From positions 106,483-138,482 of the forward strand of contig CAVUHH010000007.1 in NCBI GenBank assembly GCA_963741285.1: DNA of 32,000 nt. Reading direction: 5' to 3'. Positions 2-31,776 of the stretch are shown here, piece after piece (positions within the stretch are counted from its first letter, which is position 1; every line of letters begins with the position of its first letter). The position numbers and the translations under genes were made by a program. A model generated the notes under the pieces. That model was given only the letters and a program-made list of their open reading frames with translations. It did not search any database and was not told the DNA's origin. This stretch comes from an uncultured Actinomycetota bacterium (GTDB taxonomy: Bacteria > Actinomycetota > Actinomycetes > Actinomycetales > Micrococcaceae).

Positions 2-1942
2 GGCGACCCGGACCCGGTGGCTGAGCCTGCCGAAACCCCGCACGCCGATACCGCCCTGGCCACAGCCCACCTGGCCGCACTGCAGCGGGCCAACCGTGCC
101 ATCAAAGTAAACATCGGCGGGGCCGAGCGGTTCGCCGCTGTCGAGGACGCCGCACGCCTGCGCGACGCCATCGGTGTGCCGCTGCCCATGGGCGTGCCGC
201 TGGCCTTCATCGAACCGGTGGCGGATCCCCTCGGCGACCTCGTGTCCCGCTACGCCCGCACGCACGGACCGTTCACCGCGATGGAAGCCGCGGCGCGGCT
301 GGGCCTCGGCGTCGCCGTAGTCGGCACAGCGCTGAAGCGGCTCGCGGCGGACGGCCGCGTGGTGGAAGGCGAGTTCCGGCCCCACGCCGCGCCGCCGGAA
401 GGCGCCGCAGCCGTGCGGCGGACCACGACGAACAGCAGCCGGCAGCCGGTACGCCCCACGGAACCAGCAAGCAGCTCCACCACCAGCGAATGGTGCGACG
501 CCGAAGTGCTCCGCAAGCTCCGCCGTCGTTCGCTGGCAGCACTGCGCGCCGAAGTGGAACCGGTGGACGCCGCCGCCTACGGCCGCTTCCTTCCTGCCTG
601 GCAGCACGTCCGGACCCCGGGCGCCGGCCGCGGGCAGCCGTCCCTGCGAGGGCTGGACGGAATTGTCACGGCCATCGACCAGCTGTCCGGTGTGCCGGTG
701 CCGGCCTCGGCCTGGGAGCCGCTGGTTCTGGCCAGCCGGGTCTCCAACTACCAGCCCGCCATGCTGGACGAGCTCATGGCCGCCGGCGAAGTCCTCTGGT
801 CCGGGGCCGGCGCGCTCCCCGGCAACGACGGCTGGGTCAGCATGCACCTGGCCGATTCCGCCGACCTGACCCTGAATCCGGCCATCGATTACGAACCGGG
901 AGATGCTCAGCAACGGCTCCTTGATCACCTCCGGAACAACGGCGGTGGATACTTCTTCCGGCAACTGACCGATGTTGCCGGCGGCATGGACTCGGTGCTG
1001 AGCGACCAGGATGTGGTCTCAGCTCTGTGGGATCTGGCCTGGGCGGGCCGGATTACCGGGGATACGTTTGCACCGGTCCGCGCCCTCATCGCCGGCGGCC
1101 ACACCGCCCACCGCCAGGTGGCGCGCGCGCCCCGGGCCCGTGCACCCAGGCTGAGCCGGCTGGGCCGCTCCCACGGTACCGGGCTGCTGGGCGCTTCGGG
1201 AGTGGGCTCACCCGGCCTCAGCGGCGGGAGGTACGGCTCGTCGTCCGGTGCGGCGGCCACGCCGCCGATGGCTGCCGGACGGTGGTCTGCGCTTCCCTTG
1301 CCCGAGCTGGACGCCACCATCCACGCCCGCGCCACCGCGGAATTGCTGCTGGACCGCTATGGCGTGGTGACCCGCGGATCGGTGATGGCGGAACAGATCC
1401 TGGGCGGTTTCGGCCTGATGTACAAAGTCCTGGCCCGGCTGGAGGAAGCCGGCCGGTGCCGCCGCGGGTATTTCATCGAACACCTCGGCGCGGCCCAGTT
1501 CGCGGTCCCGGCTACCGTGGACCGGCTGCGGTCCTATTCCGAGGACAGCCAGCTGGCGAAGTCCGAACCAGTTGCCCTGGCGCTCGCGGCCACCGATCCG
1601 GCGAACCCGTACGGGGCGGCGCTTCCGTGGCCTGCCCTCAACGAGGAAGCCGGCACGGGGCACCGGCCCGGCCGGAAAGCCGGCGCCCTGGTGGTGCTCG
1701 TGGACGGTGCCCTGATCCTCTATGTGGAGCGGGGCGGAAAGACGCTGCTGGCCTTCAGCGGGGACGAAGCCATCCTGTCTGCTGCCGGCGCCGCACTGGT
1801 GGGTGTGGTCACCCGCGGTGCCGTGGACAAGCTGATCATGGAAAAGGTCAACGGCCACGACATCCTGGACACCGCCGTCGCCAAAGCCCTGGCAGCTGCC
1901 GGCGCCTACTCCACCCCGAAGGGGCTGAGGATCCGTGCCTGA
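2..1942 (+). CDS. lhr: Lhr-type ATP-dependent DNA helicase, C-terminal portion (5' end lies upstream of the window)
   Basis: The frame is open from the window edge to TGA 1940-1942. Segments such as VSRYARTHGPFT, RCRRGYFIEHLGAAQFA and LVVLVDGALILYVERGGKTLL match my memory of the conserved Lhr C-terminal domain. Its stop overlaps the start of a nei-type gene (GTGCCTGA), as in the mycobacterial lhr-nei2 operon. Confidence 0.7.
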   Translation, partial: GDPDPVAEPAETPHADTALATAHLAALQRANRAIKVNIGGAERFAAVEDAARLRDAIGVPLPMGVPLAFIEPVADPLGDLVSRYARTHGPFTAMEAAARLGLGVAVVGTALKRLAADGRVVEGEFRPHAAPPEGAAAVRRTTTNSSRQPVRPTEPASSSTTSEWCDAEVLRKLRRRSLAALRAEVEPVDAAAYGRFLPAWQHVRTPGAGRGQPSLRGLDGIVTAIDQLSGVPVPASAWEPLVLASRVSNYQPAMLDELMAAGEVLWSGAGALPGNDGWVSMHLADSADLTLNPAIDYEPGDAQQRLLDHLRNNGGGYFFRQLTDVAGGMDSVLSDQDVVSALWDLAWAGRITGDTFAPVRALIAGGHTAHRQVARAPRARAPRLSRLGRSHGTGLLGASGVGSPGLSGGRYGSSSGAAATPPMAAGRWSALPLPELDATIHARATAELLLDRYGVVTRGSVMAEQILGGFGLMYKVLARLEEAGRCRRGYFIEHLGAAQFAVPATVDRLRSYSEDSQLAKSEPVALALAATDPANPYGAALPWPALNEEAGTGHRPGRKAGALVVLVDGALILYVERGGKTLLAFSGDEAILSAAGAALVGVVTRGAVDKLIMEKVNGHDILDTAVAKALAAAGAYSTPKGLRIRA

Positions 1943-2767
1943 AGGGGATTCCGTCTGGCGGGCCGCCGCCCAACTGCACCAGGCGCTGGCGGGGCAGACG
2001 CTCACGGCCTCCGATTTCAGGGTTCCCCGGTTTGCCACGCTGAACCTGGCCGGCTGGACCGTGACCGAGGTTGTGCCTCGCGGCAAACACCTGCTCATGC
2101 GTGTGGCGGGACCGGCCGAGCGAAAGCTCACCATCCATTCGCATCTGAAGATGGAAGGTGCCTGGCAGGTCTACCCGCCCGGTGGACGCTGGCGGAAGCC
2201 GGGATTCACCGCAAGGTGCGTGCTGCGCACCGCGGTGGCGGACGCCGTCGGCTTCTCCTTGGGGATTGTGGAGGTGGTCCGCACCGATGAGGAGGACAAG
2301 ATCGTGGGTCATCTGGGACCGGACCTGCTGGGCCCGACTGGGATCCGGCCGAGGCCGAGCGAACGGATCCGCTGCGGCCCCTGATGTCCCCATCGGCGTG
2401 GCGCTGCTGGACCAGCGCAACCTCGCGGGCATCGGCAACATCTACCGCTGCGAGACCTGCTTCCTGTCCGGCGTCCATCCTGCGTCGCCCAGTTCTGCCG
2501 TCGGCGATCTCCAGACCATGATGACCGACGCGAAGCAATTGCTGGAAGCCAACCTCGGACCGGGACGGCGGGTCACCATCCTGAATCCGCGCGGCATGCC
2601 CGTGGGAAGGATGGCAGGGCGGCCCGGTTACTGGGTTTACCGCCGCGAACACCAGCCGTGCCTGAAATGCGGCACTCCCATCCGCCGCGGCGTGCTGGGG
2701 AAGCTCAATGGCGAGGAGGAGCGGGACATCTATTTCTGCCCGCAGTGCCAGCCGTCTGCTGGACTAG
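1935..2767 (+). pseudogene. nei: Fpg/Nei-family DNA glycosylase (endonuclease VIII, Nei2-like), frame-disrupted as read
   Basis: The N-terminus MPEGDSVWRAA carries catalytic Pro2/Glu3. The ORF 1935-2384 stops after GHLGPDLLGP. The rest of the protein (PDVPIGVALLDQRNLAGIGNIYRCE ... zinc finger CLKCG...CPQCQ) continues in the frame of ORF 2158-3459. The conserved DWDPAEAE is readable only in the third frame at 2336-2359. There is no in-frame stop after CPQCQ; TAG 2765-2767 is one frame off, so the 3' end is uncertain. Confidence 0.8.
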
Positions 2768-2802
2768 GACCGCAGGGCGCCTGGTTCCAGTGGCTCGGAA
2801 GT

Positions 2803-3438
2803 TCACCAACTCCGCCGTGCCCGGCCGGGCCTCGTCCTGAGCGGCGGCCGGCGACCACGGCGGCCGGGACCATGAACCAGCGGCAGCAGCAGCTGGACCA
2901 GCGGCCCGATGGCCACGGCATAGACCACCGTTCCCACCCCGACCGATCCGCCCAGCAGCCAGCCGACGCCCAGCACCACCACTTCGATCAGCGTGCGGGA
3001 CAGCCGGACGGACCAGCCGGTGCGGCGCGCCAGGCCCGTCATCAGTCCGTCGCGGGCGCCGGGGCCAAAGCGGGCGCCGATGTAGCAGGCCGAGGCGATG
3101 CCGTTCAGCACCACGGCGCCGGCGAGCATCGCGATCTGCCCGCCGAGGTGGGCGAACGCGGGGATCAGCGCCAGCCCGACGTCGGCGAACACCCCCACCA
3201 GGACGGCATTGGCCAGCGTTCCGAAGCCGGGCTTCTGCCGCAGCGGGATCCACAGCAGCAGCACCAGGAAGCTCACGGCCACCACCACGGTGCCGATGCT
3301 GAACCCGCTCAGTCCGGCGAGTCCCTGATGGAAAACGTCCCAGGGGTCCAGTCCGAGTCCGGCGCGGATGAACATGGCCAGCGAAATGCCATACATGGCG
3401 AGGCCGATCAGGAGCTGGGGGATTCTGCGGGTCATCAT
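2803..3438 (-). CDS. YczE-like integral membrane protein (COG2364-type)
   Basis: The ORF is hydrophobic and multi-TM, with LGLDPWDVFHQGL near the N-terminus, typical of YczE-family proteins. It is divergent from a MocR-type regulator, a known pairing. The start is probably ATG 3438 or 3435 (MMTRRIPQLL). The basic C-terminal tail is unverified. Confidence 0.6.
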   Translation of the reverse strand: MMTRRIPQLLIGLAMYGISLAMFIRAGLGLDPWDVFHQGLAGLSGFSIGTVVVAVSFLVLLLWIPLRQKPGFGTLANAVLVGVFADVGLALIPAFAHLGGQIAMLAGAVVLNGIASACYIGARFGPGARDGLMTGLARRTGWSVRLSRTLIEVVVLGVGWLLGGSVGVGTVVYAVAIGPLVQLLLPLVHGPGRRGRRPPLRTRPGRARRSW

Positions 3439-8059: not shown

Positions 8060-8363
8060 GCGGCCAGTTTGGCACGTGCGGCTTTGCTGATAAATGGTTC
8101 AGCCGGTCACGGCACTGGACGGCTCACAGGCCCTGCATCACAGGCAGCCGCTTCGCCAGATCGAGGAGCGCATGTTGTTTCCGGTGTCCAGCATGATGAT
8201 CCGGTAGAAACGGCGCATCGCGGAGTTCAGCCGGTCGAACTCACGGCTGCCGATGGTGGCGGCGAGGAGCAGCGTCGCCGTTCAGCCCCGAGGCTTCAAC
8301 AGGGCCCAGGAAAACAATCCCGGCGCACGGGTCCAGCGATGTGCAAGCACTGCATCAGGTGCT

Positions 8364-8392
8364 GTTGTCACTTTCCCCACCAAGTTGTCACT
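8364..8392. repeat. Perfect 9-bp direct repeat GTTGTCACT x2, 20-bp period
   Basis: GTTGTCACT occurs at 8364-8372 and 8384-8392, in non-coding, lower-GC sequence. Confidence 0.6.
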
Positions 8393-8577
8393 ATTCCCTC
8401 CCCAAGGGTTATGCCATTTGTTGTGCCACTAAATGCGGTGGACATACCCCGACATTGGAGCATGCCCACCATTTTTTAGAGATCCTGCCGACCTACCGTT
8501 GGACAACCAGCAGGTTCTGCCAGGCCTCCGAGTTCGCCACGGGACTATCGAGGCCGCACTGATGGCCATCGACAGAT

Positions 8578-8847: not shown

Positions 8848-9000
8848 AACTGCCGAGTTATTTTGCGTTGTTTTGGGAAACTATGGCGTGACAGTCTTTG
8901 ACTTGGGCGCCGAATAATCTATGCCTAGGATGGTTATACCGGGCAGTAATGTTCGTGGATTATTTGCGAATTGCAGACAAGGAAAGCAGGGCGCCCGCTC

Positions 9001-9204: not shown

Positions 9205-9238
9205 TCCGGCGCACCGAAAAGCCCCACCATATATGCGG

Positions 9239-10095: not shown

Positions 10096-10152
10096 GGACA
10101 AGCCACGCCGGGCACGGACAACGACACCCCCCGGCCGGCCGACCCACCCAAA

Positions 10153-12799: not shown

Positions 12800-13692
12800 A
12801 TGTGCGCAACATGCGGCTGCGGCGAGGACGCCACTCCCCGGGTCTATGCCCTCGATGTCCCCAGCGCGCAGGGGCATGGTCACCCCCACAATCACGGGCA
12901 CGACCACACGCACACCCACGATCACGGGCACGACCGGGCCACGCCCACGACCGGGCACGACCACGGCGCACCTGCCACGCGCCGGAGCTCATCCCGCTGG
13001 AGCAGAACCTGCTGGCCAAGAACGACCTCCTCGCCGAACGGAACCGCGGCTGGCTGGCGGGACGGAAAGTGCGGGCGCTGAACATGATGAGCTCGCCCGG
13101 CGCCGGGAAGACCACGCTCCTGGTGCGGACGCTCACGGAACTGGGAGACAGGCTGCAGGCCGGGGTCATCGAAGGGGACCAGGAAACCTCTCTCGACGCC
13201 GACCGGATCCAGGCCGCCGGGCGGCCCGTGGTGCAGATCAACACCGGAGCGGGCTGCCACCTCGACGCCGACATGCTCCGCCGCGGACTCGACGCGCTCG
13301 ATCCTCCGATGGGTTCAACCGTGTTCATCGAGAACGTGGGAAATCTCGTCTGCCCCGCCCTCTTCGACCTGGGCGAAGCAGCCAAAGTAGTAGTCGTCTC
13401 AGTGACGGAAGGTGATGACAAACCGCAGAAATACCCGCACATGTTCATCGCAGCTGACCTGGTGATCATCAACAAGTCGGACCTGCTCCCCTACGTCGAG
13501 TTCGACGTCGACGAATGCGTTCGCCGTATCCGTCACCTCAACGCCCACGCAGAATTCCTGGTCCTCTCAGCCACTACCGGCGACGGCGTTGCCGCCTGGT
13601 ATGACTGGCTGGACGGCGTTCCCTCCCGGACAGAGACCCGCGTAGGGTCTTCGACAGGGCCTCTGGAAGAGTCCCTGACAGACGCACACTGA
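12800..13692 (+). pseudogene. hypB: Hydrogenase nickel-incorporation GTPase HypB, frame-disrupted inside/after the His-rich tract as read
   Basis: The N-terminus MCATCGCGEDA plus HGHPHNHGHDHTHTHDHGHD is in the frame of ORF 12800-13081. The G-domain (ELIPLEQNLLAKNDLLAERNRGWL, P-loop SSPGAGKTTLL, ENVGNLVCPA, NKSDLL) is in the frame of ORF 12802-13692. The switch lies between about 12935 and 12990. Confidence 0.85.
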
Positions 13693-17528: not shown

Positions 17529-18200
17529 ATGGAATCGCCCGGCCTGCCCGTAGCGCTGCTGCGACGGATCGCCGCCGCCCCGCCGGCCGCTCCCGCCGGC
17601 GAGCGCTGCGAAATGTGCGGGGAGCCCATCGCCTCCGAACACCAGCACGTCGTGGACCTGGACAGCCATGCCATGATGTGCACCTGCCGGCCCTGCTACC
17701 TCCTCTTTACGGACAGCAATGCCCACCTGAGGTACCGGTCCGTGCCGGACCGGTACCTGTCCTTCCCCGATTTTGAGCTGGGCCCGGGCCAGTGGGACGA
17801 GCTGGAGATTCCCGTGGGACTGGCGTTCTTCTTCCGCAGTTCCAGGATGGAGCGGACGGTGGCGTTCTATCCCGGCCCTGCCGGTGCCACCGAATCCGAA
17901 CTGCCGCTGGACGCCTGGGATGCCGTGATGGCGCGGAATCCGGCCCTGTCCATAGCGGCCCCGGACACCGAGGCCCTCCTGATCCGGGGGCCCGGCCAGG
18001 AACGCCCCCAGGCCGACTGCCACCTTGTCCCCGTGGACGCCTGTTATGAACTGGTGGGACACCTGCGGCGCCTGTGGCGGGGTTTCGACGGCGGCCAGGA
18101 GGCCCGCGACCAGCTCACCTCCTTCTTCGCAAAGATCAGCAGCCGCAGCACCCCGGTCCACGAAACCACCCGGCAATCAACGTCCGGAGGCCTGCCGTGA
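17529..18200 (+). CDS. Conserved hydrogenase-cluster protein of unknown function (DUF5947-like, Cys-rich N-terminus)
   Basis: The ATG lies 1 nt after the preceding TGA. It carries the motif CEMCGEPIASEHQHVVDLDSHAMMCTCRPCYLLF. The family name is from memory and unverified. Confidence 0.65.
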   Translation: MESPGLPVALLRRIAAAPPAAPAGERCEMCGEPIASEHQHVVDLDSHAMMCTCRPCYLLFTDSNAHLRYRSVPDRYLSFPDFELGPGQWDELEIPVGLAFFFRSSRMERTVAFYPGPAGATESELPLDAWDAVMARNPALSIAAPDTEALLIRGPGQERPQADCHLVPVDACYELVGHLRRLWRGFDGGQEARDQLTSFFAKISSRSTPVHETTRQSTSGGLP

Positions 18201-18879
18201 TCGCCCTGGCCTTCGACGTCCTGGACATCCAACCGGAACCGTATGCGGCAGCGCCCCAGCTCACCGCGACGCTGCGGGTGACCGAGTCCACCGGGGCCGC
18301 AGTACACGCCATCGCCCTGCGCTGCCAGGTCCGGATCCTGCCCCAGCGCCGCGGCTACACACCCGAGGAAGAGTCCGGTTTGCTGGACCTCTTCGGCGAG
18401 CGCGGCCGCTGGCCCACCACCCTGAAGTCCTTCCTCTGGCTGCAATGCAGCACCATGGTCCAGGGCTTCACCGGCCAAACCGAGGTTCGGCTCCCGCTGC
18501 CCTGCACTTTTGACTTCGACGTTTCCGCCGCCAAGTACCTGCAGTCCCTGCGTGACGGTTTGGTCCCGCTGGAACTGCTGTTCTCCGGCACGGTTTTCAC
18601 CAGGGGTGAGGCAGGCTTCGGCGTGGAGCAGGTGCCTTGGGACCTCGAAGCCTCCTACCGGCTGCCGGTCGACGCATGGCGCCGGCTGATGGACCAGTAC
18701 TTCCCCCACACCGGCTGGCTGCGCCTGGACCGGGACGTGCTCGCAGCCCTGCTGCATTACAAGGCGGCCCGGGGCCTGACCTCCTGGGATGCCACCGTGG
18801 AGAGCCTGCTGGCCACGCCGCGGCGGTGGCCCCTGCGGCCCTGTCAGGAAGTTCGCTGTCAGGAGACCCGCTGCCATGA
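18197..18879 (+). CDS. Conserved hydrogenase-cluster protein of unknown function (DUF6084-like); 3' end probably frame-shifted
   Basis: The GTG at 18197 overlaps the upstream TGA (GTGA). As read, the frame runs on to 19132, 257 nt into the next gene. A 1-nt shift near 18811-18825 would end it at TGA 18877-18879, forming an ATGA overlap with the next start. Confidence 0.55.
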
Positions 18880-20282
18880 GCATGAGCCTGAGCCTCGCCC
18901 GCGCCGTGGCGGATGCCGTCCTGTACGAGGGCTACCTGCTCTACCCGTACCGCGCGTCCTCGCAGAAGAACCAGGCCCGGTGGCAGTTTGGCATCCTTGG
19001 CCCGCCAGGCGCCGCCGCTTCCGGCTCCGGCGAGGAAGCGGACATGTTCGCCGACTGCCTGCTCACCCCCGGCCCGAAGGCTGCCGTCGAAATTCATCTG
19101 CGTTTCCTGCAGCTCCAGGGGCGGTCGGCTGAGAAAGCGGACGACGACGGAGGGTTCACGGCGGTGGATGAGCTCACGGTCGGTGCCGCCCGCTGGCTGA
19201 GCTGGGACGAGGCGGTGGAGCGGGAAGTCACGCTGGGGCCGATCGCTGTGGCCGGGCTCAGCGGGCAGCCGACGGTTCTGCCGGTGGAGGTTCCCGGCGG
19301 CGAGGACACCGAGGAACTGCGCGACGCATCGGGGCGGCTGGCTGGGAGGCTGGTCCGCCGTCGTCGGCCGCTTCATGCTGAGGTGGGGCTGGCAGCGGCG
19401 TCAGCCGCAGGTGCCTTGGTGAGACTGCGGGTCGGCGTAGAAAATGTCGGGGTTGTTGAGACGGCCGCGAACGCAGGGGCGGGCGGTGCGGCTGGCTGGA
19501 GCAGGCAGGATGCGATCGCCGAATCCTTTATCGGCACGCACCTGCTCCTGAGCGTTCAGGACGCAGATTTCCTCTCCCTGTTGGAGCCACCACCCAACGC
19601 GGCCGCCGCGGCGGCCGCCTGCGGGCAGCACCGGTGCTGGCCCGTTTTGGCCGGTCCGGAGGGGCAGTCGGATGTGCTGCTGGTTTCCCCGATCATTTTG
19701 TACGACCACCCCGCCGTTGCCCCCGAAAGCTCGGTGGCACTGTACGACTCCACCGAAATCGACGAGATCCTGACGCTGCGCGTGCTGACCCTTACCGACG
19801 AGGAAAAGGCCGAAGCCCGCGCCACCGATCCACGGGCGGCTGCCATTATCGACCGGTGCGAGGCCATGTCCCCCGAAGAGCTGCAGCAACTGCATGGCAT
19901 CCTGCGCAATCCCCATGCCATGGACATTCCAGAACTCCATGAAGGACGCGGCGACCCGCAAGATGCGTGGTGGACGCCCGAAGCCGAAGCCCTGGTCCAG
20001 CCCCACCTGGATGCCGTGCTGATCAACGGGGTTCCGGTGGCCCGGGGCAGCCGCGTCAGGGTCAATCCGAGCCGGCGCGCCGATGCCCAGGACCTGTTCT
20101 TCGCCGGGCAGACGGGCCGCGTTACCAACGTCCACTTCGACGTTGACGGCAGCACCCATGTTGGCCTCGTCCTCGAGCAGGACCCGGCCGCAGACCTCCA
20201 CGAGGGCTACGGCAGGTCCTTCTATTACTCACCCGAAGAGCTCGAACCCCTGGGTCCGGATGGAAAGGAAGGCCCGCCATGA
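18876..20282 (+). CDS. Conserved hydrogenase-cluster protein of unknown function (468 aa)
   Basis: Starting from ATG 18876 (MSMSLSLARAVADAVLYEGYLLYPYRASSQKNQARWQFGILGP). The composition is balanced and the ORF is intact. No domain is recognised. Confidence 0.65.
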   Translation: MSMSLSLARAVADAVLYEGYLLYPYRASSQKNQARWQFGILGPPGAAASGSGEEADMFADCLLTPGPKAAVEIHLRFLQLQGRSAEKADDDGGFTAVDELTVGAARWLSWDEAVEREVTLGPIAVAGLSGQPTVLPVEVPGGEDTEELRDASGRLAGRLVRRRRPLHAEVGLAAASAAGALVRLRVGVENVGVVETAANAGAGGAAGWSRQDAIAESFIGTHLLLSVQDADFLSLLEPPPNAAAAAAACGQHRCWPVLAGPEGQSDVLLVSPIILYDHPAVAPESSVALYDSTEIDEILTLRVLTLTDEEKAEARATDPRAAAIIDRCEAMSPEELQQLHGILRNPHAMDIPELHEGRGDPQDAWWTPEAEALVQPHLDAVLINGVPVARGSRVRVNPSRRADAQDLFFAGQTGRVTNVHFDVDGSTHVGLVLEQDPAADLHEGYGRSFYYSPEELEPLGPDGKEGPP

Positions 20283-21683: not shown

Positions 21684-22451
21684 TCAAGGGCGATGGCTGC
21701 GCCGCGATGTTCCACGCCGCATGTTGGCGATCCTGAGGTGCCTGCCGGTAAAGAGTTTCAACTGCTGCAACTGGTGGGGTGTCAGCCGGTCACAGACCCA
21801 GTCCCAGTGCAGCGACACCACGTCACCCGCTGCGAGCCCGGCAATGAAGCCGGTTCCGTTGACTGCATACTTGGCGGTTTCCACCACGGGTTCGCCCACG
21901 GCCAGGGAAGTCCCGTCCCATGTCAGGGGACGGGACTTGACCACGGCTTCATCGCCCGTAATGGCCAGGACTTCGCCCCACCGGATCCGGCAGCGGTCCA
22001 GGACGTTCAGCGCCGTGGCGTAGCGGCGGTCATCACGCAGCAGCCCCAGCCAGGGATAGATTTCGAAGACGTGGAAGCTGTGGTGCGGGACGCCGCCCGC
22101 CAGGACGCCTTCCACGAGGTGCGGAAACTGCCGGCCGGTGCGGGCACGGAACCGGTCTTCCATCGAGTTGCCCATCATGCTGATGCCTACGGTGTCCAGG
22201 AGGCTGTTTCCCACCCAGTAGGCCTCCACCACGCGGGCGTCCAGCGGGTCGTGGATGCCGTGGGAACCGGCAATGAGTTCCAGGTAGGGCCAGGCTCCGG
22301 CAAAGCCCTTCGCGAGTTCGCGCAGGCCCTGGTCGGTGACGCCGGACTGGCCGTAGTGCAGCAGCGCGTCACTGTCGGGAGGGCCGCAGCTGCCTCGGGA
22401 ATTGGGCGGGTACGCGTACCGGACAAACAACTGGGCACCATCGACAACCAT
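21684..22451 (-). CDS. Conserved hypothetical protein (DUF6390-like)
   Basis: 255-aa intact ORF with balanced composition. The N-terminal FVRYAYPPNSRGSCGP resembles what I recall of DUF6390 (unverified). It is convergent with the hydrogenase operon. Confidence 0.55.
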   Translation of the reverse strand: MVVDGAQLFVRYAYPPNSRGSCGPPDSDALLHYGQSGVTDQGLRELAKGFAGAWPYLELIAGSHGIHDPLDARVVEAYWVGNSLLDTVGISMMGNSMEDRFRARTGRQFPHLVEGVLAGGVPHHSFHVFEIYPWLGLLRDDRRYATALNVLDRCRIRWGEVLAITGDEAVVKSRPLTWDGTSLAVGEPVVETAKYAVNGTGFIAGLAAGDVVSLHWDWVCDRLTPHQLQQLKLFTGRHLRIANMRRGTSRRSHRP

Positions 22452-22603
22452 GGCGTGGCCACCTTCTCCGAGGGTCTTTCGAACGTAGCACCGCTGCCTG
22501 CCCCGGACAAGGGCCGGTTGGCCGCCGCCGCACCACTAAATCCGTTGACAGCGTCCGCGCAGGTGCGGGCGCACAAGCAGACCGAAAGCAGGGCTCACAC
22601 ACC

Positions 22604-23758
22604 ATGGCATCCACTGATCTGAACCGCCGCGCCGCCCTACAACTTCTGGTGGCGGGAGGCTCCGCAGCCCTGCTGGCAGGATGCGCCGGCACCCCTGGTT
22701 CGCCGCCGTCGTCGGGCCTTGCCACGAACGGCGCGAACGGCGGCAGCGGCGCGATCAGCGTCACCGATCAGCGTGGCAAAACCCTGACCTTTGCCCGGCC
22801 GGTGACGCGGGTGGTGACCATCCCCATGCCGGCGGCGTCGTTGCTGGTGGCCGTGGACCGGACCGCGGACCACCTCGCGGCCATGCACAACGCCTCCTGG
22901 GTGGCCATGCGCGACGGGATTATGGGCACCATCTTCCCCAAGGCCCTGGAGCTGCCGCACGAGATCGCCACCCAGGACTTCACGGCCAATGTGGAGAGCG
23001 TCCGTGCCCTGGACCCGGACGTGGTGATCCAGTGGTCCGACGCGCAGCTCATCGACCCGCTGGAAAAGGCCGGCCTGAACGTCATCGGGCTGACCAACAG
23101 GGGCAAGCAGGAGGATGTGGACGCGTGGGTGGCCATGTTCGCCGCCATGCTGGGAAAGCCCGAACGTGCCGTGGATATCAGGACCCGGAGCGATATGGAA
23201 CTGGCCGTGGTCAAGGATCTGGCAGCCGGCAGGGCCTCAACCGGGCCCAGCATCCTGTACTTCAACCGCTTCACCGGTGGCCTGAAGGTGGCCGCGGCCA
23301 ACAGCTACAACGACTTCTACATCAAGCTGGTGGGTGGCACGAATCCCGCCACCGGGGACGATCCGCTGAAGGGGTCGGGGATGGTGGGCCTGGACGTGGA
23401 GCAGGTGCTCCGCTGGGATCCGGAGATCATCCTGCTGGGGAATTTCGACAACGCCATGCCGCAGGACCTCTACTCAGACCCTGTCTGGCAGACCGTGTCC
23501 GCGGTCAGGAACCGGCGTGTCTACAAGGTGCCGCTGGGTGGGTACCGGTGGGATCCTCCCGGGCAGGAATCACCGCTGATGTGGCACTGGCTGAGCGATA
23601 TCGCGTTCCCCCAGCAGCAGTCCCTCCTCAGGAACAAGGTGGTGGAGTACTTCGATTTCCTGTACAGCCACAAACCCTCCGCGGCCGAACTGGACAAAAT
23701 CCTGTGGACCACCGCCAACGCCGACTCTGACCACTACCGGCAGTTCAATGCTGCATGA
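22604..23758 (+). CDS. ABC transporter substrate-binding lipoprotein, FecB/FhuD/BtuF (cluster A-2) type
   Basis: Has a Tat-like RRAALQLL and the lipobox LLAGC. The body resembles iron-siderophore/cobalamin-type binding proteins (VVTIPMPAASLLVAVD..., WDPEIILLGN, RRVYKVP). Confidence 0.8.
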   Translation: MASTDLNRRAALQLLVAGGSAALLAGCAGTPGSPPSSGLATNGANGGSGAISVTDQRGKTLTFARPVTRVVTIPMPAASLLVAVDRTADHLAAMHNASWVAMRDGIMGTIFPKALELPHEIATQDFTANVESVRALDPDVVIQWSDAQLIDPLEKAGLNVIGLTNRGKQEDVDAWVAMFAAMLGKPERAVDIRTRSDMELAVVKDLAAGRASTGPSILYFNRFTGGLKVAAANSYNDFYIKLVGGTNPATGDDPLKGSGMVGLDVEQVLRWDPEIILLGNFDNAMPQDLYSDPVWQTVSAVRNRRVYKVPLGGYRWDPPGQESPLMWHWLSDIAFPQQQSLLRNKVVEYFDFLYSHKPSAAELDKILWTTANADSDHYRQFNAA

Positions 23759-23819
23759 CGCCAGCGACGAACGGCTTGACGCCGGCCGCGGTCCGGGCAT
23801 CCCGGTGGCCCGGACCCGG

Positions 23820-24907
23820 ATGCAGGCGCGGCCGGGAACGTTGACGACGGCGTCCGGCCGCGTGGGGAGCCCGTCGGCGGCGGGCGGCGGGGACCGTCAG
23901 CCCTCAAGCCGATCGCCATCAGCGCAGTCTTCCTGGTCACCGTGACCCTGGTGGCCCTGGCCGTGGGCCGGTACAACGTTCCGCTCTGGCACGTGGTGCA
24001 GATCCTCGTGGGGCAGGTCGTCCCGGTCCCTGTCGAGGCAACCGCCACGGAGGAAAATGTGGTGCTGCTGGTCAGGCTGCCCCGTGTGCTGCTGGCACTG
24101 CTGGTGGGCGGCGGCCTGGCCATCGGCGGCGCGGCGCTGCAGGCCATCTTCCACAATCCGCTGGTCAGTCCGGACATCATCGGCGTGTCTGCGGGTGCGT
24201 CCTTCGGCGGGGCGCTGGCGCTCCTTCTGGGCCTGGGGACGTTCGCGCTCATCACGAGTTCCTTCGCGTTCGGCCTGGTTGCCCTGGCCACGCTGTTCCT
24301 GATCACATCCGGGCGCGGCGGGACTCCCCTGCTGATGATTGTGCTGGGCGGCGTGGTCACGGGCTCGTTCTTCTCCGCGCTGGTTGCCCTGGTCACCTAC
24401 ATCGCGGATCCGAACACCACGTTGCCGGCCATCGTGTTCTGGCTCCTGGGCAGCGTGGCCACTGCCACGTTCGGCAAGGTGGTGGTGGCACTGATTCCCG
24501 TTGTGGGCGGCGCACTGGTGCTCCTGGCGCTGCGCTGGCGCATCAACGTGCTCTCCCTGGGCGACGACGACGCTGCCGCCCTCGGGGTCCGGCCCCGGCC
24601 GCTGCGCTGGGTGGTGCTGGTTTCGGTGGCCCTGATCGTGGCCGGGGCCGTCGCGGTCAGCGGCGCGGTCAGCTGGGTGGGGCTGGTGATCCCCCACCTG
24701 GCGAGGATGTGGGTGGGTCCGGACCACCGCGTGCTGCTGCCGGTCTCCTTCCTCCTGGGGGGCGCCTACATCATGCTGGTGGACACTGTGGCACGGACAG
24801 CGACGGCGGGCGAGATCCCGCTCGGCGTGCTGACGGCGCTCATCGGGGCGCCTGTCTTTTTTGTCCTGCTGCGCCGGAACCGGGACAGGATCTGGGAAAG
24901 TGCTTGA
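23820..24907 (+). CDS. FecCD-family ABC permease; 5' end unresolved (probable frameshift near 23865-23895)
   Basis: The intact ORF 23942-24907 has FecCD hallmarks (LLVGGGLAIGGAALQAIFHNPLVSPDIIGVS, IPLGVLTALIGAPVFFVLL). However, TM1 (LKPIAISAVFLVTVTLVALAVG) extends upstream of the GTG at 23942, and there is no in-frame start back to the stop at 23777. ATG 23820 (MQARPGTL...) in another frame could join it through a G-run indel. Confidence 0.8.
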
Positions 24908-25643
24908 GCTGGAGGGCGTTGGCTTCGGCTACGGCAGGACGGATTGGGTGTTCCGGAATGTCAGCTTCCAGGTGCTGCCTGGGACCGCCACCGCCGTCCT
25001 GGGACCCAATGGCAGCGGCAAAACCACGCTGGTGCGCTGCGCCGCCGGGCTGCTCGCCCCAGTGGAGGGAAGCGTCACCCGGGCGGCCAGGGCCGGCTAC
25101 GTCCCGCAGGCCCATGGCAGTACGTTCGCTTACCGTGCCCTGGACATGGTGCTGATGGGACGGGCACGGCAGATCGGCCTCTTCCGTTCGCCGGGTGCGG
25201 CGGACCGGGCTGCCTCACTGGAGGCAATGGAACGGGTGGGCATCGCCGGCCTCCGCAGCAGGTTTTTCCCCACGCTCAGCGGGGGCGAGCAGCAGCTGGT
25301 CCTGATCGCCCGGGCCATCGCGGCCGGCTGCCCCGTCCTGGTGCTGGACGAGCCCGCCACCGGCCTGGACCTGAAAAACCAGGTCCGCGTCCTGCGGCTC
25401 CTGCGCGAACTGATGACGGACGGCATGGCCGTGCTCCTCAGCACCCACCACCCGGACCACGCCCTGTACGTCGCGGACCGCGCAGTCCTGCTCTCCCCCA
25501 CTGGTCCCCGGACCGGCGACGCCCGGGAACTCCTGAGCGAGAAGGAACTCACGGCGCTGTATGGCGTCGGCGTCAGCACCGTGCCGTATGTCGATGGACC
25601 AAGCACCCGCCGGACCGTGGTGGTGCACTACGGCGACCAGTGA
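24900..25643 (+). CDS. ABC transporter ATP-binding protein (FepC/FecE type)
   Basis: Walker A GPNGSGKTT, signature LSGGEQQ, Walker B VLVLDEP. The GTG at 24900 overlaps the permease stop by 8 nt. Confidence 0.9.
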   Translation: MLELEGVGFGYGRTDWVFRNVSFQVLPGTATAVLGPNGSGKTTLVRCAAGLLAPVEGSVTRAARAGYVPQAHGSTFAYRALDMVLMGRARQIGLFRSPGAADRAASLEAMERVGIAGLRSRFFPTLSGGEQQLVLIARAIAAGCPVLVLDEPATGLDLKNQVRVLRLLRELMTDGMAVLLSTHHPDHALYVADRAVLLSPTGPRTGDARELLSEKELTALYGVGVSTVPYVDGPSTRRTVVVHYGDQ

Positions 25644-25798
25644 GAGAGCGTCCCGGGAAAACCCACATTAAGTGATAGACGGTCTGTTCCGGGTAGACGC
25701 TCTCTCACTTAATGCAGGAAATCCACAAGCGCTCTCTCACTTTCTTTAGGAAAGTGAGAGAGCGATTGGGAAAAACCCGCATTAAGTGAGAGAGCGTC
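25640..25798. repeat. Cluster of five GTGAGAGAGCG-core repeats in both orientations forming nested or alternative hairpins
   Basis: Forward copies are at 25640-50, 25754-64 and 25786-96; reverse copies are at 25698-708 and 25730-40. There is a perfect 15-bp hairpin (25730-44 / 25750-64, loop TTTAG). An 18-bp perfect inverted repeat (20 bp with flanks) joins 25696-25715 to 25779-25798 and encloses that hairpin. 25640-52 is also complementary to 25696-708. A direct ~114-bp periodicity is visible (GGGAAAACCCACATTAAGTGA vs GGGAAAAACCCGCATTAAGTGA). Confidence 0.8.
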
Positions 25799-25814: not shown

Positions 25815-28640
25815 TTAGCCGGTGTTGCGCAGGCCGGCGGCCACCCCGTTGACGGTGATCAGCATGGCCCGCTGGAGGCGTTCGTCGATCTCGGCGTTGC
25901 TGATGCTTTCGTCTTCTGAGGCCTGGGCCGCCCGGATCGCGCCGGAGGAGCTCCACCTGCAGGTAGCTGATGGGGTCCAGGTACTGGTCGCGGATCTCCA
26001 GGGAACGCTTGAGCGTGGGCTGGGCGTCCAGGAGCGTGTTCTCGCCGGTAAGGCTCTGGATCTCCCTGACCGTGAGCTCGTACTCCTCGCGGATGGTGCG
26101 GAAGATGCGGTGCAGCTCCTCAGGAACCAGCGTGGCCACGTAGTACCCGGCGATGTCCAGGTCCGTCTTGGCCAGGGTCATCTCCACGTTGGAAAGGACA
26201 GAGCGGAAGAAGTGCCAGTGCTCCATCATCTCCACCAGCTGGCCCGAGTGGCCGGCCTCGCGGGCCGCCTTCAGGCCCGAGCCCACACCGAACCAGCCAG
26301 GCACGATCTGCCGGGACTGGGTCCAGCCGAACACCCACGGGATGGCGCGGAGGCCACCGAGGCCGGCCCCGGAATCGGGCCGCTTGGACGGACGGGAGCC
26401 GATGTTCAGCGAGCCCAGCTGCTCCACCGGGGTGGAGGCCAGGAAATATGCGGGCAGGTCAGGATCGTCGATGAGCTTCCGGTACCGGTCAAAGGCGCCG
26501 TCGGAGATGGTCTCCATGACGTGGCCGTACCGCTCGCGCTGGTCATCGGAGGTGCGCGGGGTCACGGTGCAGCGCCGAGCCCTGGAGCACCGCGGCGAGC
26601 GAGAGCTCCAGGTTCTCCCGGGCCAGCTCCGGCAGGGAGTACTTGTCCGAGATGACCTCGCCCTGTTCGGTGAACTTGATCTCGCCTTCCAGGACTCCGT
26701 TGGGCTGGGCCATGATGGCGTCATAGGTGGGTCCGCCGCCACGGCCCACGGAACCGCCGCGGCCGTGGAACAGGCGGACCCGGACGCCGTGCTTGGCCGC
26801 CACGTCGCGCAGGTTGCGCTGGGTCTTGTGGATCTCCCACTGGCTGGTCATCACACCGGATTCCTTGTTGGAGTCCGAGTAGCCGAGCATGATTTCCTGG
26901 ACGTCGCCGCGCAGCCGGACCAGGTCGCGGTAGGACGGGACGGACAGCAACTGGTCCACGATCTCAGCCGAGGCCCGCAGTTCCTCCACGGTTTCCAGCA
27001 GCGGCGCGAAGCCGATCTTCGCGTACGGCGACGCGCCAAAGAGGTTGATCAGGCCGGCTTCGCGCGCCAGGACCGCTGCGGCCAGGACGTCGTCCGCGCC
27101 GCGGGTCATGGAAATGATGTAGGTTTCGACGACGTCCGGACCGTACGTGCGCAGGGCGCGGCGGATCTCACGGAAGACGTCGTACGTTCCGTCAGCGACG
27201 CCGTCGAGCTTGATCGGGTGGCCGGAGAGCGGGCGGCGGGAGGCCAGTTCCGATCCCAGCACCTCGAAGCGTTCGTCCCGGCTCAGTTCCGCGTAGCGGA
27301 TGCCCGGGCCGCCGAGCCGGTCCATCAGCTGGCCGACGGCGTCGTGGTGGTGGTCGGCGTGCTCGCGGATGTCCAGGGTGGCCAGGTGCAGGCCAAACGA
27401 CGCAACGGCGCGGCGGACGCGGGCCAGCGCACCGTCGGCTGCGAGCGACGCCGAGTGGTTTCGGAGCGACAGCTCCAGCAGTTCAAGGTCGGTCAGCAGT
27501 TCGCTGGTGGAGCTGTAGTCCCGGCCGTGTTCATGGTTGGAGTCCGCGGCCACGCGCTTGCCGGTGTTGATGAGCTTGGCCTTGATGCACGTGAGCTTAA
27601 GGCGGTAGGGCTCCTGGGCGTTGAGTTCCAGGACGCGGCGGTCCAGGCCCGGGAGCTTTTTCAGGTCCGCCTCGATGGAGTCCAGCAGGCCCTTGTCCGC
27701 ACCGGCCAGCGAGGTGGAGTTGGACAGGATGGAGATCAGTTCGTCCATCATCGCGATGCTGATGCGGACGGCGTGCTGGTTCTGGATCTGCAGGATTTCC
27801 CTGGTGACCGCCGCCGTGACGTTGGGGTTGCCGTCCCGGTCGCCGCCGATCCAGGAGCCAAACCGGATGGGGGCGTCCTGGGACGAGAGGCTGACGCCGT
27901 GCTCGCCGAGCAGTTCCGAGAAATCCGACAGCATCTCAGGCATGGCGTCGGTCAGGATGCCGCCGAGGTAGTAGATGGCGTTGCGGGCCTCGTCCACCGG
28001 GGTGGGGCGCACCTGGCGCAGCTCGTCCGTCTGCCACATCTGGTCGATGACCTCGGACAGCTGGCGGTCCTGCCGGCGGCGGGCGGTGGTGCCTTCCTTC
28101 GTGGATTCGGACAGCACATCGGAGAGCTTGCGGATCTTGTCCAGCACGGAACGGCGCGAGGCCTCGGTGGGGTGGGCGGTGAAGATGGGGCGGACGTCCA
28201 GCCCGTTGACCACTTCCTGCAGCCGTCCGGGTCCCGCCTGGGCGGCGATGTCGGCGACGGCCTTGGCCAGCCAGCCGTCCTTTTCCTGCCGGGTCCGCAG
28301 GCGTGCGGACGCGGTGGACCTGTTCGGCCGCGTTGGCGAGGTGGAAGTAGAACGCGAACGCGCGCACCAGGTCGGTGGCCTGCTCAATCGGCAGGGAGCC
28401 GAGCAGTTCGCGGACCTGCTCGACGACGTCGTGCGCGCTCCAGGGCCCGGTGGCGTCAGCTCCGCCGCGGGCCGCTTCCTTGGATTCCTTGGTGAGGAGG
28501 CGGACCTGCTCCACCAGGTCCAGGAGCTCAGGGCCGTGCTGGCGCACCAGGGATTCGCCCAGCAAGGAGGTGACGCGCCGGACGTCGGCCCTCAGTTCAG
28601 AGGCAAGGTCGGTTGTGGGATTCACTGCAGTGTTAGCCAT
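25815..28640 (-). pseudogene. ppc: Phosphoenolpyruvate carboxylase, split over four frame segments as read (three frameshifts)
   Basis: The N-terminus [28 protein letters not shown] starts at ATG 28640. It contains [31 protein letters not shown] and [13 protein letters not shown], and the canonical C-terminus [15 protein letters not shown]-stop (TAA, 25815-25817 on the plus strand). Frame changes lie near 28298-28310, 26560-26570 and 25935-25945. Confidence 0.92.
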
Positions 28641-28866: not shown

Positions 28867-29700
28867 ATGAGCACCACCGCAGCCGCCCAGCTGGAACGCT
28901 GGCAGCGCTTCCGCACCAACCGGAACAAGGCCCTCGCCACCCGCCACGGCTGGCTGACCCTCACCTCCTTCCAGTGGCTGGAATCCGAGCCCTCCGCCGT
29001 CGACCTCGTCCCCGGCCTCTGGTCAACGGACGGTACGACGGCGGCACTCACCGCAGCGGCGCAGGACGGCCTGACGCTGGTGGCCACCGGGGAGCCCGTG
29101 GACGGCACCGTCACGCCGCCCTCGCCGACGAGGAGTCCCTGATGTGGGTGCAGTTCGGCGGCGCGGACGGCCAGCAGGTGGTGGTTGAACTGGCCATGCG
29201 CGCGGACCGGTACGCCATCCGCACGCGGGATTCGCGGCTCACCCGTCTTGACGGAGTTCGACGGCGTTCCCACCTTCGGCTACAACCCGGACCTGGTGAT
29301 TGAGGCGGCTTACGAGCCGTACCCGAGCCGGAGGCCGTCCCGATCGCGCACGGCCAATCCGCTGGTGGACGGCGTGCACTATTCGGTGGGCGAGGTGGTG
29401 TTCCGGCTCCCGGGGATTGACCATGAATACCGCCTGCATGCCGAGGAGGAAAAGCTGGGCGCGCTGACCATCACGTTCCATGACGGAACCAACGGCGAGT
29501 CAACGGACGAGTGGCGGAAGGTGTCCACACCCAGGCCCCGAGTGGACGCCGCCGGCAACGCCACGGTGGTCCTGGACTTCAACCGCGCCATCAACTACCC
29601 CAGCGCGTTCACGCCCTTCGGCACCTGCCCCATGCCGGTGAAGAACAACAGCCTGGACGCGAGGATCGAGGCCGGCGAAAAGCAGCCCGCCTTCGGCTGA
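28867..29700 (+). pseudogene. DUF1684-family protein, two compensating frameshifts as read
   Basis: A GGAGG RBS precedes ATG 28867. The N-terminal part (ERWQRFRTNRNKALATRHGWLTLTSFQWL) and the C-terminal part (DFNRAINYPSAFTPFGTCPMPVKNNSLDARIEAGE) are in the same frame. The middle (AALADEESLMWVQFGGADGQQVVVELAMRADRYAIRTRDS) reads only in another frame, between about 29112 and 29240. Confidence 0.75.
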
Positions 29701-29773: not shown

Positions 29774-30970
29774 CTAGACGATCGCCGAGACTCCGGTGAC
29801 GGCCCGGCCCACGATGAGCGTGTTGATTTCAAACGAGCCCTCGTAGGTGTAGATGGCCTCGGCGTCGGCGAAGATCTTGGCCATCCGGTAGTCGGTCACG
29901 ATGCCGTTGCCGCCCAGGATGGACCGGCCCAGCGCCACGGTTTCGCGCATCCGGGCGCTGGTGTAGGACTTGGCGAGGGCCACCTGCGGCATGTCGGCGG
30001 CGCCGTCGTCCTGCAGCTGCGCGAGCCGCGCCATCATGCCCATGCTCGCCACGGTGTTGCCCAGCATGGTCACCAGCTGCTGCTGGATGAGCTGGAACTT
30101 GGCCAGCGGCCGGCCGAACTGCTGGCGTTCGACGGCGTACTGCCGGGCGACGTCGAACGCCGCCAGCTGCTGCCCCACGGCCTGCCAGGCCACCATGAAC
30201 CGCGAGCCGCGCAGGAGCTGGTTGGTGTCCTCGAAGCTGTTGATCCCGGCAAACCGGTCAGCCTCGGCAACCCGGACATCCTCGAAGACAATGTCCGCGT
30301 TCTGCACGGTCCGCAGCGCGATCTTGTTCTCGATCCGGCTCCGGCTGACCCCCGGCAGGGAAGCATCAACGATGAACCCGCGGACCGCGCCGGGCCCGCC
30401 GGCGCCGCGGATTCGTCCCTGGCCCACACCAGCATGTAGTCGCAGAACGTCCCGTTGCCGATCCAGCGTTTGGCGCCGTTGAGCACCCAGGCGTCGCCGT
30501 CGTCGTCGGGCTCTCCGGTCGCTGCTGGAGATCCGCCGGGCCCGCGTTTCCATCCCGCCGGCCACATCGGAGCCGTGCCCGGGCTCGGTGAGGGCGAACG
30601 CGCCGGTGATGCGGAGGCTTGAGGCGTCCGCGAGCAGCCGGTCCTTCTGGCTGGCCGAGCCAAAGCCGTACAGCGACTCCACAAACAGGTCGTGGTGGAC
30701 CAGGAAGAACGTGGCGATGGAGGTGTCCACGCGGGTCATTTCGGCAATGACCAGTCCCGCGAACAGGTTGCTGTAGCCGCGCTGGGCCGGGGTGCTCAGT
30801 TCCAGGGCGGCGAGTTTGGGCAGGATGTGCGCCGGAAACTCGGCCTTGTTCCACCAGTCCGAGGCATAGGGGGCGATCTCCGCGGCGAGGAATTCGCGCA
30901 GCTCGGCCAGCTTTGCCTGCTCCTTCGGACTGAGGAGGGACTCGAAGGCGAAGAAGTCGGCCGTGGGCAA
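29774..30970 (-). CDS. Acyl-CoA dehydrogenase (glutaryl-CoA dehydrogenase-like) with an internal out-of-frame segment
   Basis: ACAD motifs include [12 protein letters not shown] and the C-terminal [18 protein letters not shown]. Residues encoded by about 30400-30540 read as Arg-rich nonsense, while the conserved [29 protein letters not shown] is in another frame. The start is TTG 30970, 6 nt after the SDR stop. Confidence 0.85.
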
Positions 30971-30976
30971 GCCCGT

Positions 30977-31776
30977 TCACTTCGGGCCCATCCGGATGGC
31001 GCCGTCGAGCCGGATGGTTTCGCCGTTGAGCATGGCGTTCTCCACGATGTGGGCCACCAGGCTGGCGTACTCTGCCGGTTTTCCCAGGCGTGAGGGGTGC
31101 GGAACCTGCCGGCCCAGCGACTCCTGCGCTTCCTGCGGGAGCGTCGCCATCATGGGGGTTTCGAAGATGCCGGGGGCGATGGTCACCACACGCACCAGCG
31201 AGCGCGCCAGTTCCCGTGCCAGCGGCAGCGTCATGGCGGCGACGGCGCCCTTGGAGGCGGCGTAGGCAGGCTGCCCGATCTGCCCGTCGAAGGCCGCCAC
31301 GGATGCGGTGTTCACGATGACGCCGCGCTCGGGGCCGCCCAGCTCCGTGCTGACCGGCTCGGTGGCCACCATGGCCGCGGCCGCCAGGCGCAGCACGTTG
31401 AACGTCCCGACGAGGTTCACCTGGATGACCCGGTTGAACGTCTCCAGCGGGAGGACGCCGTCCCGGCCCAGCACCTTGCCGGGCGTGGCGATGCCGGCGC
31501 AGTTCACCACGATCCGCAGCGGCCCCAGGGTCACAGCGGTGTCGACGGCGGCCTGCACCTGCGCTTCGTTGGTGACGTCTGCGGGGACGAAGACTGGCCC
31601 GCGGGCCGGAGCCGGCGCCGCGCGCCGTTCAGCTCCGCCGCGAAAGCCGCGCCGGCAGAGGACGGCAGGTCGATCAGCACCACCGAGGCGCCGGCGTCGA
31701 ACAGGCGCTTAGCCGTAGCAGCGCCCAAACCGGATGCCCCGCCCGTAATCAGCGCGACCGTACCCATGACGTCCAT
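30977..31776 (-). pseudogene. Short-chain dehydrogenase/reductase (3-hydroxyacyl-CoA dehydrogenase type-2-like), one frameshift as read
   Basis: An AAGGAGG RBS lies 5 nt before ATG 31776. The N-terminus [25 protein letters not shown] is in the frame of ORF 31531-31821. The remainder ([18 protein letters not shown]...[24 protein letters not shown]) is in the frame of ORF 30977-31558. The switch is near 31600-31640, and the total length of 800 nt is not a multiple of 3. Confidence 0.85.

Follow-up and report, generated by a model that had tools for sequence, protein, structure and literature searches.

Frame disruptions throughout a draft Pseudarthrobacter genome probably reflect uncorrected consensus errors

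Conserved genes in a 32,000-nt stretch of a Pseudarthrobacter genome (the window, meaning the whole stretch of DNA analysed) repeatedly change reading frame, which raises the question of whether the organism has lost these genes or whether its deposited sequence is faulty. A sequence-only reading had put the excess at about 14-16 sites, favoured uncorrected assembly indels with a long-read or homopolymer-error signature, and named gene decay across unrelated pathways as the alternative. Alignment with up to nine congeners bears out the excess and enlarges it: of the ~27 genes in the window, 11 together carry ~19 small indels that change the frame (Table 1). Essentially all of the sites named earlier carry a frame-changing indel specific to this assembly, including a shift proposed with some doubt near position 2750 of nei. 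Every window indel that can be pinned is private to the deposited assembly; at these positions the aligned congeners all agree with one another and their orthologs are uninterrupted.

The alignments also amend the inventory. In the DUF1684 gene, the upstream pair of indels had been listed and stands, whereas the downstream pair had been missed; the site in the DUF6390 gene was likewise absent from the list. The orientation of three genes required correction, as ppc and the genes for the acyl-CoA dehydrogenase (ACAD) and the short-chain dehydrogenase (SDR) are encoded on the minus strand. The indels in ppc and nei, the two genes cited earlier as housekeeping functions, are confirmed by the congener alignments. 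Further candidates from automatic clustering (3439, 20915, 22596, 28864 and 29697/29701) were intergenic, start-proximal or alignment artefacts and were excluded from the count. An Rfam scan of the window returned no matches.

Table 1. Genes of the window with frame-changing indels. Positions are window coordinates; compared with every congener in the alignment, -1 denotes a missing base and +1 an additional one.
Gene	Position	Strand	Frame-changing indels	Alignment and domain evidence
nei (Fpg/Nei DNA glycosylase)	1935..2766	+	-1 at 2335; +1 at 2362, 2374, 2754	Read in three frames; five congeners against the window at each site (alignment); Pfam Fapy_DNA_glyco and H2TH in different frames; normal stop codon thrown out of frame by 2754
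Unnamed gene	about 2860-3438	-	+1 at 2879	Within the last ~10 codons; window only, against 5 congeners
hypB (nickel-binding GTPase, hydrogenase maturation)	12800..13692	+	Frame switch in His-codon tract, 12935-12985	N-terminal MCATCGCG... in frame 2, conserved APELIPLEQNLLAKN... in frame 1 (translations, window and six relatives); downstream frame matches Pfam cobW/HypB
DUF6084 gene	18074..18880	+	-1 at 18814 in the tail, then a 15-nt tandem duplication	Pfam DUF6084 match stops at this site; conserved overlapping stop (CCATGA) out of frame (alignment, six relatives)
DUF6390 gene	21687..22451	-	+1 at 21720	Last ~14 codons altered; window only, against 6 relatives; Pfam DUF6390
FecCD-family ABC permease	23748..24907	+	One net change somewhere in 23780-23895, not localisable because linker length varies among relatives	Conserved start ATG (in CAATGCTGCATGA, ~23748) and TM1 (~23885)/membrane domain in different frames (three-frame translation, window and five relatives); Pfam FecCD
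ppc (phosphoenolpyruvate carboxylase)	25818..28640	-	+1 at 25937, 26558, 28303	Four frame segments; five to nine congeners gapless at each site; split shown by tblastn with intact congener ppc; Pfam PEPcase
DUF1684 gene	28867..29700	+	-1/+1 pairs at 29114/29234 and 29321/29347	Five congeners agree and the window alone deviates at all four sites; Pfam DUF1684
Acyl-CoA dehydrogenase (ACAD)	29774..30970	-	-1 at ~30404; +1 at ~30522	ORF still open, ~39 codons misread (alignment, five congeners); Pfam Acyl-CoA_dh_1
Short-chain dehydrogenase (SDR)	30980..31791	-	+1 at 31595, beside a length-variable loop	N-terminal part not in the frame of the main part (tblastn frames -3 and -2; alignment); Pfam adh_short

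The density of these indels sets the window apart from its relatives. In particular, the window contains 14 lineage-unique indels of 1-2 nt with clean flanks in 28.6 kb, compared to 1 in 28.7 kb for Pseudarthrobacter sp. Y6, the closest complete genome and our reference; all ten comparators pooled have 10 in 126 kb (0-2 per comparator). Similarly, tblastn finds 6 frame junctions in 8368 aa of the window, versus 2 in ~36,000 aa of the eight good congeners (Poisson P ~9e-6). The rest of the assembly, however, does not differ from the window. With tblastn queries consisting of uninterrupted Y6 ORFs, drawn from 40 samples of 20 kb at even spacing, 117 frame junctions were found in 137,280 aa, and 88 of the 381 sampled genes (23%) have a frame change with respect to Y6. 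The resulting rates are 0.72 junctions per 1000 aa in the window, 0.85 in the genome and 0.06 in the eight good congeners. Junction rates are alike on all large contigs and broadly alike across conservation classes, although genes with at least 95% aa identity have 0.51 junctions per 1000 aa versus ~0.95 in the others. The window is therefore unexceptional, and samples a genome-wide rate of frame disruption.

Two other measures were set aside. A nucleotide-level count of out-of-frame episodes against Y6 genes gave 0.3-0.85 per kb in good congeners, the same as in the window, because it is dominated by BLAST gap placement in divergent stretches and by the non-coding 5′ parts of stop-to-stop ORFs; it was superseded by the tblastn junctions and the clean-flank indels. 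A reverse tblastn polarity control, comparing this genome's ORFs to Y6 DNA, returned 0.34 junctions per 1000 aa, which is uninformative because alternative frames stay open in 66% GC DNA and the same indel is visible from both sides. Polarity was settled with third genomes instead, and a GC3 frame plot served only as a rough guide.

The spectrum of the indels is narrow. A count over 362 kb of CDS gives 148 insertions and 64 deletions of one nucleotide, but only 24 two-nt events; single nucleotides thus account for 212 of the 236 small events, with insertions outnumbering deletions 2.3:1. Mutations caused by slippage are found mainly in runs, and deletions tend to prevail among bacterial indels. 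Here, association with homopolymers is weak, and 26 of 52 one-nt insertions match neither neighbouring base, where ~53% is expected for random insertion from the base composition; the homopolymer signature proposed earlier is accordingly unsupported. The indels are clustered, with 34 pairs within 30 nt versus 4.5 expected. The apparent compensating pairs reflect this clustering and not the restoration of frame, as opposite-sign pairs (28 of 56) are in no excess over the 43% expected by chance.

Overall, we estimate a probability of about 90% that the frame disruptions are uncorrected consensus errors of a draft assembly, with no counterpart mutations in the organism. This was also the preference of the sequence-only reading, and it fits the private indels, their genome-wide density, the breaks in essential genes, the absence of nonsense substitutions and the lowered completeness (see below). 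The consensus would retain extra single bases, and less often lack one, at a density of ~0.65 per kb of coding sequence throughout a genome of 4.45 Mb. Roughly one gene in four would then appear frameshifted, and some ORFs would stay open yet be misread for a few dozen codons. A minority of events could be genuine, most notably those in the length-variable hypB His tract, FecCD linker and SDR loop, because the most conserved genes have fewer junctions and rpoB, rpoC, gyrA and dnaE1 are intact in this genome. The assembly is probably a long-read draft or MAG that was poorly polished, from a culture or a metagenome bin. Its platform is less certain because the errors usually left in Nanopore, 454 or Ion Torrent data are linked to homopolymers more strongly than the indels here; an insertion-dominated, homopolymer-independent spectrum is closer to that of the errors remaining in a low-coverage PacBio CLR-type consensus.

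The assembly shows other signs of poor quality. Its marker completeness is 87.4%, versus 99-100% in congeners of similar size, and several of its small contigs duplicate parts of large contigs at 94-96% identity with 4-6 gaps per kb. Three complete rRNA operons are located inside contigs. Comparison of their copies shows 8-11 mismatches with 0-4 gap columns in the 16S and 18-36 mismatches with 4-16 gap columns in the 23S, compared to 0-3 mismatches and 0-4 gap columns between the copies within relatives. Some of these signs could be read as the collapse of a strain mixture, where the consensus of a metagenome bin combines two or more co-occurring Pseudarthrobacter strains and indels arise at haplotype switches or through averaging; the disruptions would still be artefacts. 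The duplicated contigs, the preponderance of substitutions between rRNA copies, the local clustering of indels and a contamination of 1.8% are all consistent with such a mixture. We nevertheless consider it an improbable source of the frame disruptions. Real strains carry in-frame genes, and switching between them should rarely yield single-nucleotide indels in a gene such as secY, where two 1-nt insertions unique to this assembly lie 12 nt apart and nine congeners are gapless. Moreover, junction rates vary little from contig to contig, and the gaps between duplicated pieces point to errors at the read level in addition to any mixture.

Genuine, recent pseudogenisation of the whole genome, through early reductive evolution or in a frameshift-prone mutator lineage, is more doubtful still, and we regard it as very unlikely. 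In its favour, the deposited sequence does contain the indels, the junction density of the most conserved genes is about half that of other genes, and several large essential genes are intact. Genuine pseudogenes, however, are expected to spare essential genes, and here secY, secA, ileS, sufD, aroC and ctaB are frameshifted. Of these, secY occupies a single locus in the genome, and the single-copy secA and ileS are each split by a frame change; the breaks lie near 26,260 of contig 8 in secY, near 210,005 of contig 25 in secA and at 10,256-10,348 of contig 9 in ileS. Such lesions would be intolerable for a living cell. The NAD kinase gene, nadA, metX, ahcY, glnE and gnd are affected as well. 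The broken essential genes thus contradict the decay across pathways that had been offered as the alternative.

The lesions themselves argue in the same direction. No credible premature stop from a substitution was found among ~69,600 aligned codons; judged by inspection, all 37 in-frame stops inside HSPs fell in upstream non-coding parts of stop-to-stop ORFs, out-of-frame patches, an extreme C-terminal end or non-coding-looking frames. At least 117 frameshifts are therefore unaccompanied by nonsense substitutions. Pseudogenes would be expected to have a mixed spectrum of lesions and relaxed constraint; instead, nearly all events are single-nucleotide ones, biased towards insertion and not associated with homopolymers, and protein identity to orthologs is 92-98% on both flanks of the breaks. 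The size of the genome is also normal for the genus. In the very unlikely case that the indels are real, they would describe a Pseudarthrobacter population under very recent frameshift-driven gene inactivation, with core-gene lesions still unpurged by selection; a mutator with a strong +1 bias, or DNA largely from non-viable cells, could be the cause. Programmed recoding, where ribosomal frameshifting or transcriptional slippage would restore the proteins, has nothing in its favour except the presence of the frame changes and appears effectively refuted by the missing conservation, as the shifts are missing from every congener ortholog, each uninterrupted at its site, and as the changes occupy hundreds of unrelated sites that share no slippery motif, are both +1 and -1, and often occur several times per gene.

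If the disruptions are consensus errors, the organism itself almost certainly carries these genes intact, and the frame breaks have no biological meaning. The deposited assembly appears to be the representative of its species in the searched collection, which holds one genome per species, and annotation of this assembly will report about one gene in four as a pseudogene, a split gene or a truncated protein. Genes with an open frame and ~40 wrong residues will escape annotators, as exemplified by the ACAD gene of the window and, outside it, by a class-I aminoacyl-tRNA synthetase paralogue. Polishing is needed before this assembly is used to infer protein sequences, the loss of genes or metabolic capacities such as those of ppc, hydrogenase maturation and iron uptake. 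Correspondingly less weight should be given to other findings from this genome that depend on a reading frame or on a short ORF.

Comparison with known systems is in line with consensus errors. Like the genomes of Mycobacterium leprae and Sodalis glossinidius, this assembly has interruptions in a large fraction of its genes, in pathways unrelated to one another. In those reductive genomes, essential genes are intact, frameshifts are accompanied by nonsense mutations and larger deletions, and pseudogenes diverge; here, in contrast, breaks occur in secY, secA and ileS, nonsense mutations are absent and the broken genes have kept their high identity. Within the same genus set, another congener assembly (G083) resembles it as a draft of 20 long contigs in which completeness is low (79%), 1-nt indels are numerous and an essential-gene frame is broken, here that of rpoB. 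It differs in having a junction rate about six times higher (5.4 per 1000 aa) and about equal numbers of deletions and insertions (13 versus 10). The closest likeness is to uncorrected long-read bacterial assemblies, whose gene-fragmenting indel errors are described by Watson & Warr 2019, cited in PMC12007338, and in the Kastor paper itself (PMC12007338). In one such Nanopore assembly, errors at <0.05% of bases resulted in 23.3% pseudogenes and a BUSCO completeness of 92.2%; once corrected, the same assembly had 5.6% pseudogenes and a completeness of 99.7% (PMC12007338). The published Nanopore errors were mostly homopolymer-associated deletions (PMC12007338), unlike the insertion-dominated errors without homopolymer preference found here. 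In both cases, completeness is lowered, frameshifts outnumber other lesions, rRNA operons lie inside contigs, and an error density below 0.1% makes ~23% of genes appear frameshifted.

Mapping of an intact 940-aa congener protein onto ppc in the window yields four pieces in reading frames -1, -2, -3 and -1. Multi-genome alignments pin each of the three junctions to a single extra base present in the window only, with five to nine congeners being gapless there. In such alignments, nei carries one missing and three extra bases, the DUF1684 gene two pairs of one missing and one extra base, and the short-chain dehydrogenase (SDR) gene one extra base, all of them window-specific; the C-terminal tails of the DUF6084 gene, the DUF6390 gene and one unnamed gene also carry window-specific indels. 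In the acyl-CoA dehydrogenase (ACAD) gene, a missing and an extra base lie ~118 nt apart and the ORF is still open. The MCATCGCG N-terminal motif of hypB and part of its His tract share a frame that differs from that of the conserved GTPase part, and the conserved start codon and first transmembrane helix of FecCD occupy separate frames; because tract length differs among relatives, these two shifts are not assignable to one base. Overall, the window contains ~19 events in 11 genes. The frame disruptions claimed by a sequence-only reading are therefore borne out by both protein mapping and alignment; the genes that it listed are affected, although its count of ~14-16 sites was slightly short. 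Five more sites from automatic clustering were dropped as intergenic or as alignment artefacts.

Coordinates of the source contig region and of features in the window, the source genome and a congener
Feature	Sequence	Position (nt)	Description
Window	source contig 7	106,483-138,482
Variable region	window	8100-10100	between Macro-domain and DedA genes; lower GC (0.61 vs 0.68); BTAD-domain regulator and small ORFs; not in Y6, partial match only in congeners G012 and G023
Hydrogenase and importer block	window	11150-25650
Tandem duplication	window	18845-18874	15 nt (CTGTCAGGAAGTTCG / CTGTCAGGAGACCCG), directly before DUF6084 stop and next gene's start; absent from 6 relatives
Nested palindrome	window	25696-25797
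ppc frame junctions	window	~28,303, ~26,558, ~25,937
rRNA operon	source contig 7	1-5843	complete
rRNA operon	source contig 13	21-5820	complete
rRNA operon	source contig 14	346080-351909	complete
Class-I aminoacyl-tRNA synthetase paralogue	source contig 25	564377-566431	947-aa frame open throughout
Middle of same paralogue	source contig 25	565384-565665	matches family in a different frame
rpoB of congener G083	G083 contig 10	48934-52261	broken into 590- and 634-aa frames

The source genome belongs to Pseudarthrobacter and comprises 4.45 Mb in 25 contigs (66% GC); its marker-gene completeness is 87.4%, compared to 99-100% in most similar-sized congeners. The closest complete relative found, Pseudarthrobacter sp. 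Y6 (NZ_CP189574; G021 and G072), is syntenic over the full window with a nucleotide identity of 79-91%. According to Pfam, the left flank encodes an Lhr helicase C-terminal part, nei, a GntR-aminotransferase regulator, an ArsR-type regulator, an RluA-type pseudouridine synthase, a Macro-domain protein, a BTAD regulator and a DedA/VTT protein, and the right flank contains ppc (minus strand), the DUF1684 gene, and the ACAD and SDR genes (both minus strand). A block of ~14.5 kb encodes a nickel transporter (NicO), HypB, the small and large [NiFe]-hydrogenase subunits with DUF5947, DUF6084 and DUF6390 partners, a NifU-like protein, a HycI-type protease, and an iron-type ABC importer (binding protein, FecCD permease and ATPase). 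The block is present in 16 of the 80 congeners searched and absent at the syntenic site in four (G008, G005, G001 and G012); its hydrogenase small subunit shares 99% identity with the Y6 protein, with flanking genes at ~84-97%. Further, the ABC-ATPase and ppc genes, which are convergent, are separated by a nested palindrome of ~100 nt, with GACGCTCTCTCACTTAATGC... as its outer arms and GCGCTCTCTCACTTTC... as its inner hairpin; as RNA, the palindrome folds at -76 kcal/mol (z = -10.6). Related copies number ~25-30 in the source genome and are also present in some congeners (G005, G012 and G008). The element has no Rfam match and resembles either a bidirectional terminator or a REP- or MITE-like repeat.

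The indel load of the window exceeds chance. Indels of 1-2 nt that are unique to one lineage and have gap-free flanks, counted in identical alignments for all genomes, number 14 in 28.6 kb of the window, compared to 1 in 28.7 kb of Y6 and 10 in 126 kb of ten pooled comparators. Similarly, tblastn finds 6 frame junctions in 8,368 aa of the window versus 2 in ~36,000 aa of eight good congeners (Poisson P ~9e-6). Within its own genome, the window is an ordinary sample and not special. In particular, each intact Y6 ORF from 40 samples of 20 kb, evenly spaced on the Y6 chromosome, was tested for a single-frame match in the source genome; frame changes appear in 88 of 381 orthologous genes (23%), with 117 junctions over 137,280 aa (0.85 per 1000 aa), versus 0.72 in the window by the same measure. 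The rate is similar on each large contig (0.3-1.15 per 1000 aa) and also between conservation classes, at 0.51 in genes with at least 95% identity and 0.9-1.0 in others. At the nucleotide level, 236 small indels with well-aligned flanks occur in 329 genes (362 kb; 0.65 per kb), with at least one in 129 genes (39%).

The disrupted genes include essential single-copy ones. In secY, two extra bases lie 12 nt apart mid-gene and nine congeners are gapless over 1,301 nt; the genome has no second secY copy. Likewise, secA is broken into 197- and 782-aa frames and ileS into 602- and 568-aa frames, and the disruptions extend to sufD, aroC, ctaB, the NAD kinase gene, nadA, metX, ahcY, glnE and gnd. The intact state of rpoB, rpoC, gyrA and dnaE1 is within expectation for genes of this total length at the rate observed. 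The aminoacyl-tRNA synthetase paralogue on contig 25 harbors a hidden double frameshift, resembling the ACAD gene of the window.

The lesion spectrum is unfit for natural decay: 212 of the 236 small events are 1 nt long (148 insertions and 64 deletions), and ~69,600 aligned codons hold no credible premature stop by substitution. The 37 in-frame stops seen are confined to non-coding upstream stretches of stop-to-stop ORFs, out-of-frame patches, extreme C-terminal ORF ends or non-coding-looking frames. The homopolymer signature proposed from sequence alone is not supported, as 26 of 52 1-nt insertions match neither neighbouring base, in line with the ~53% that random insertion would give, calculated from base composition. 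Indels occur in local bursts, with 34 pairs within 30 nt versus 4.5 expected, but the compensating share of nearby pairs (28 of 56) shows no excess over the 43% expected by chance; the compensating pairs noted earlier therefore reflect clustering, not frame-restoring selection.

The assembly is also internally inconsistent. Its three complete rRNA operons are internal to contigs, which suggests long reads, and differences among their copies amount to 8-11 mismatches plus 0-4 gap columns in 16S and 18-36 mismatches plus 4-16 gap columns in 23S; within each of four relatives, the ranges are 0-3 mismatches and 0-4 gap columns. The divergence reaches ~1% in both genes and is chiefly substitutions. 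Some small contigs (C19, C22, C12 and C15) carry second copies of stretches of large ones (94-96% identity, 4-6 gaps per kb); together with the rRNA differences, they suggest a mixed population or metagenome bin.

Overall, four independent lines (essential genes, spectrum, bursts and assembly inconsistency) point to error, not biology, and support the assembly-indel explanation, homopolymers excepted. Judged from sequence, the indels are very probably plain consensus errors (probability roughly 0.9), and an assembly artefact of some kind, either plain error or strain mixture, would almost certainly account for them. The errors may stem from a single-molecule consensus of low coverage, perhaps for a mixed population; that strain mixture replaces plain error as their source is improbable. 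Genuine gene decay is more doubtful still, with essential single-copy genes broken and 1-nt indels, not stops, dominating, although the slight drop in density among the most conserved genes may reflect a small genuine component, or else an effect of detection in divergent genes. Where tracts vary in length (hypB His tract, FecCD linker and SDR loop), a few events could be genuine. The frame disruptions are not a biological feature, and the finding serves as a quality warning for the source genome.

In a published bacterial assembly from uncorrected Nanopore data, errors at <0.05% of positions went along with 23.3% of genes being annotated as pseudogenes and a BUSCO completeness of 92.2%, changing to 5.6% and 99.7% after correction (PMC12007338); these values are a close numerical match to the source genome. 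However, the errors in that assembly were mostly homopolymer-associated deletions, whereas insertions dominate here and homopolymers play no visible part. Among congeners, G083 (79% complete, 20 contigs) is frame-broken like the source genome, at a ~6x density of 5.4 junctions per 1000 aa.
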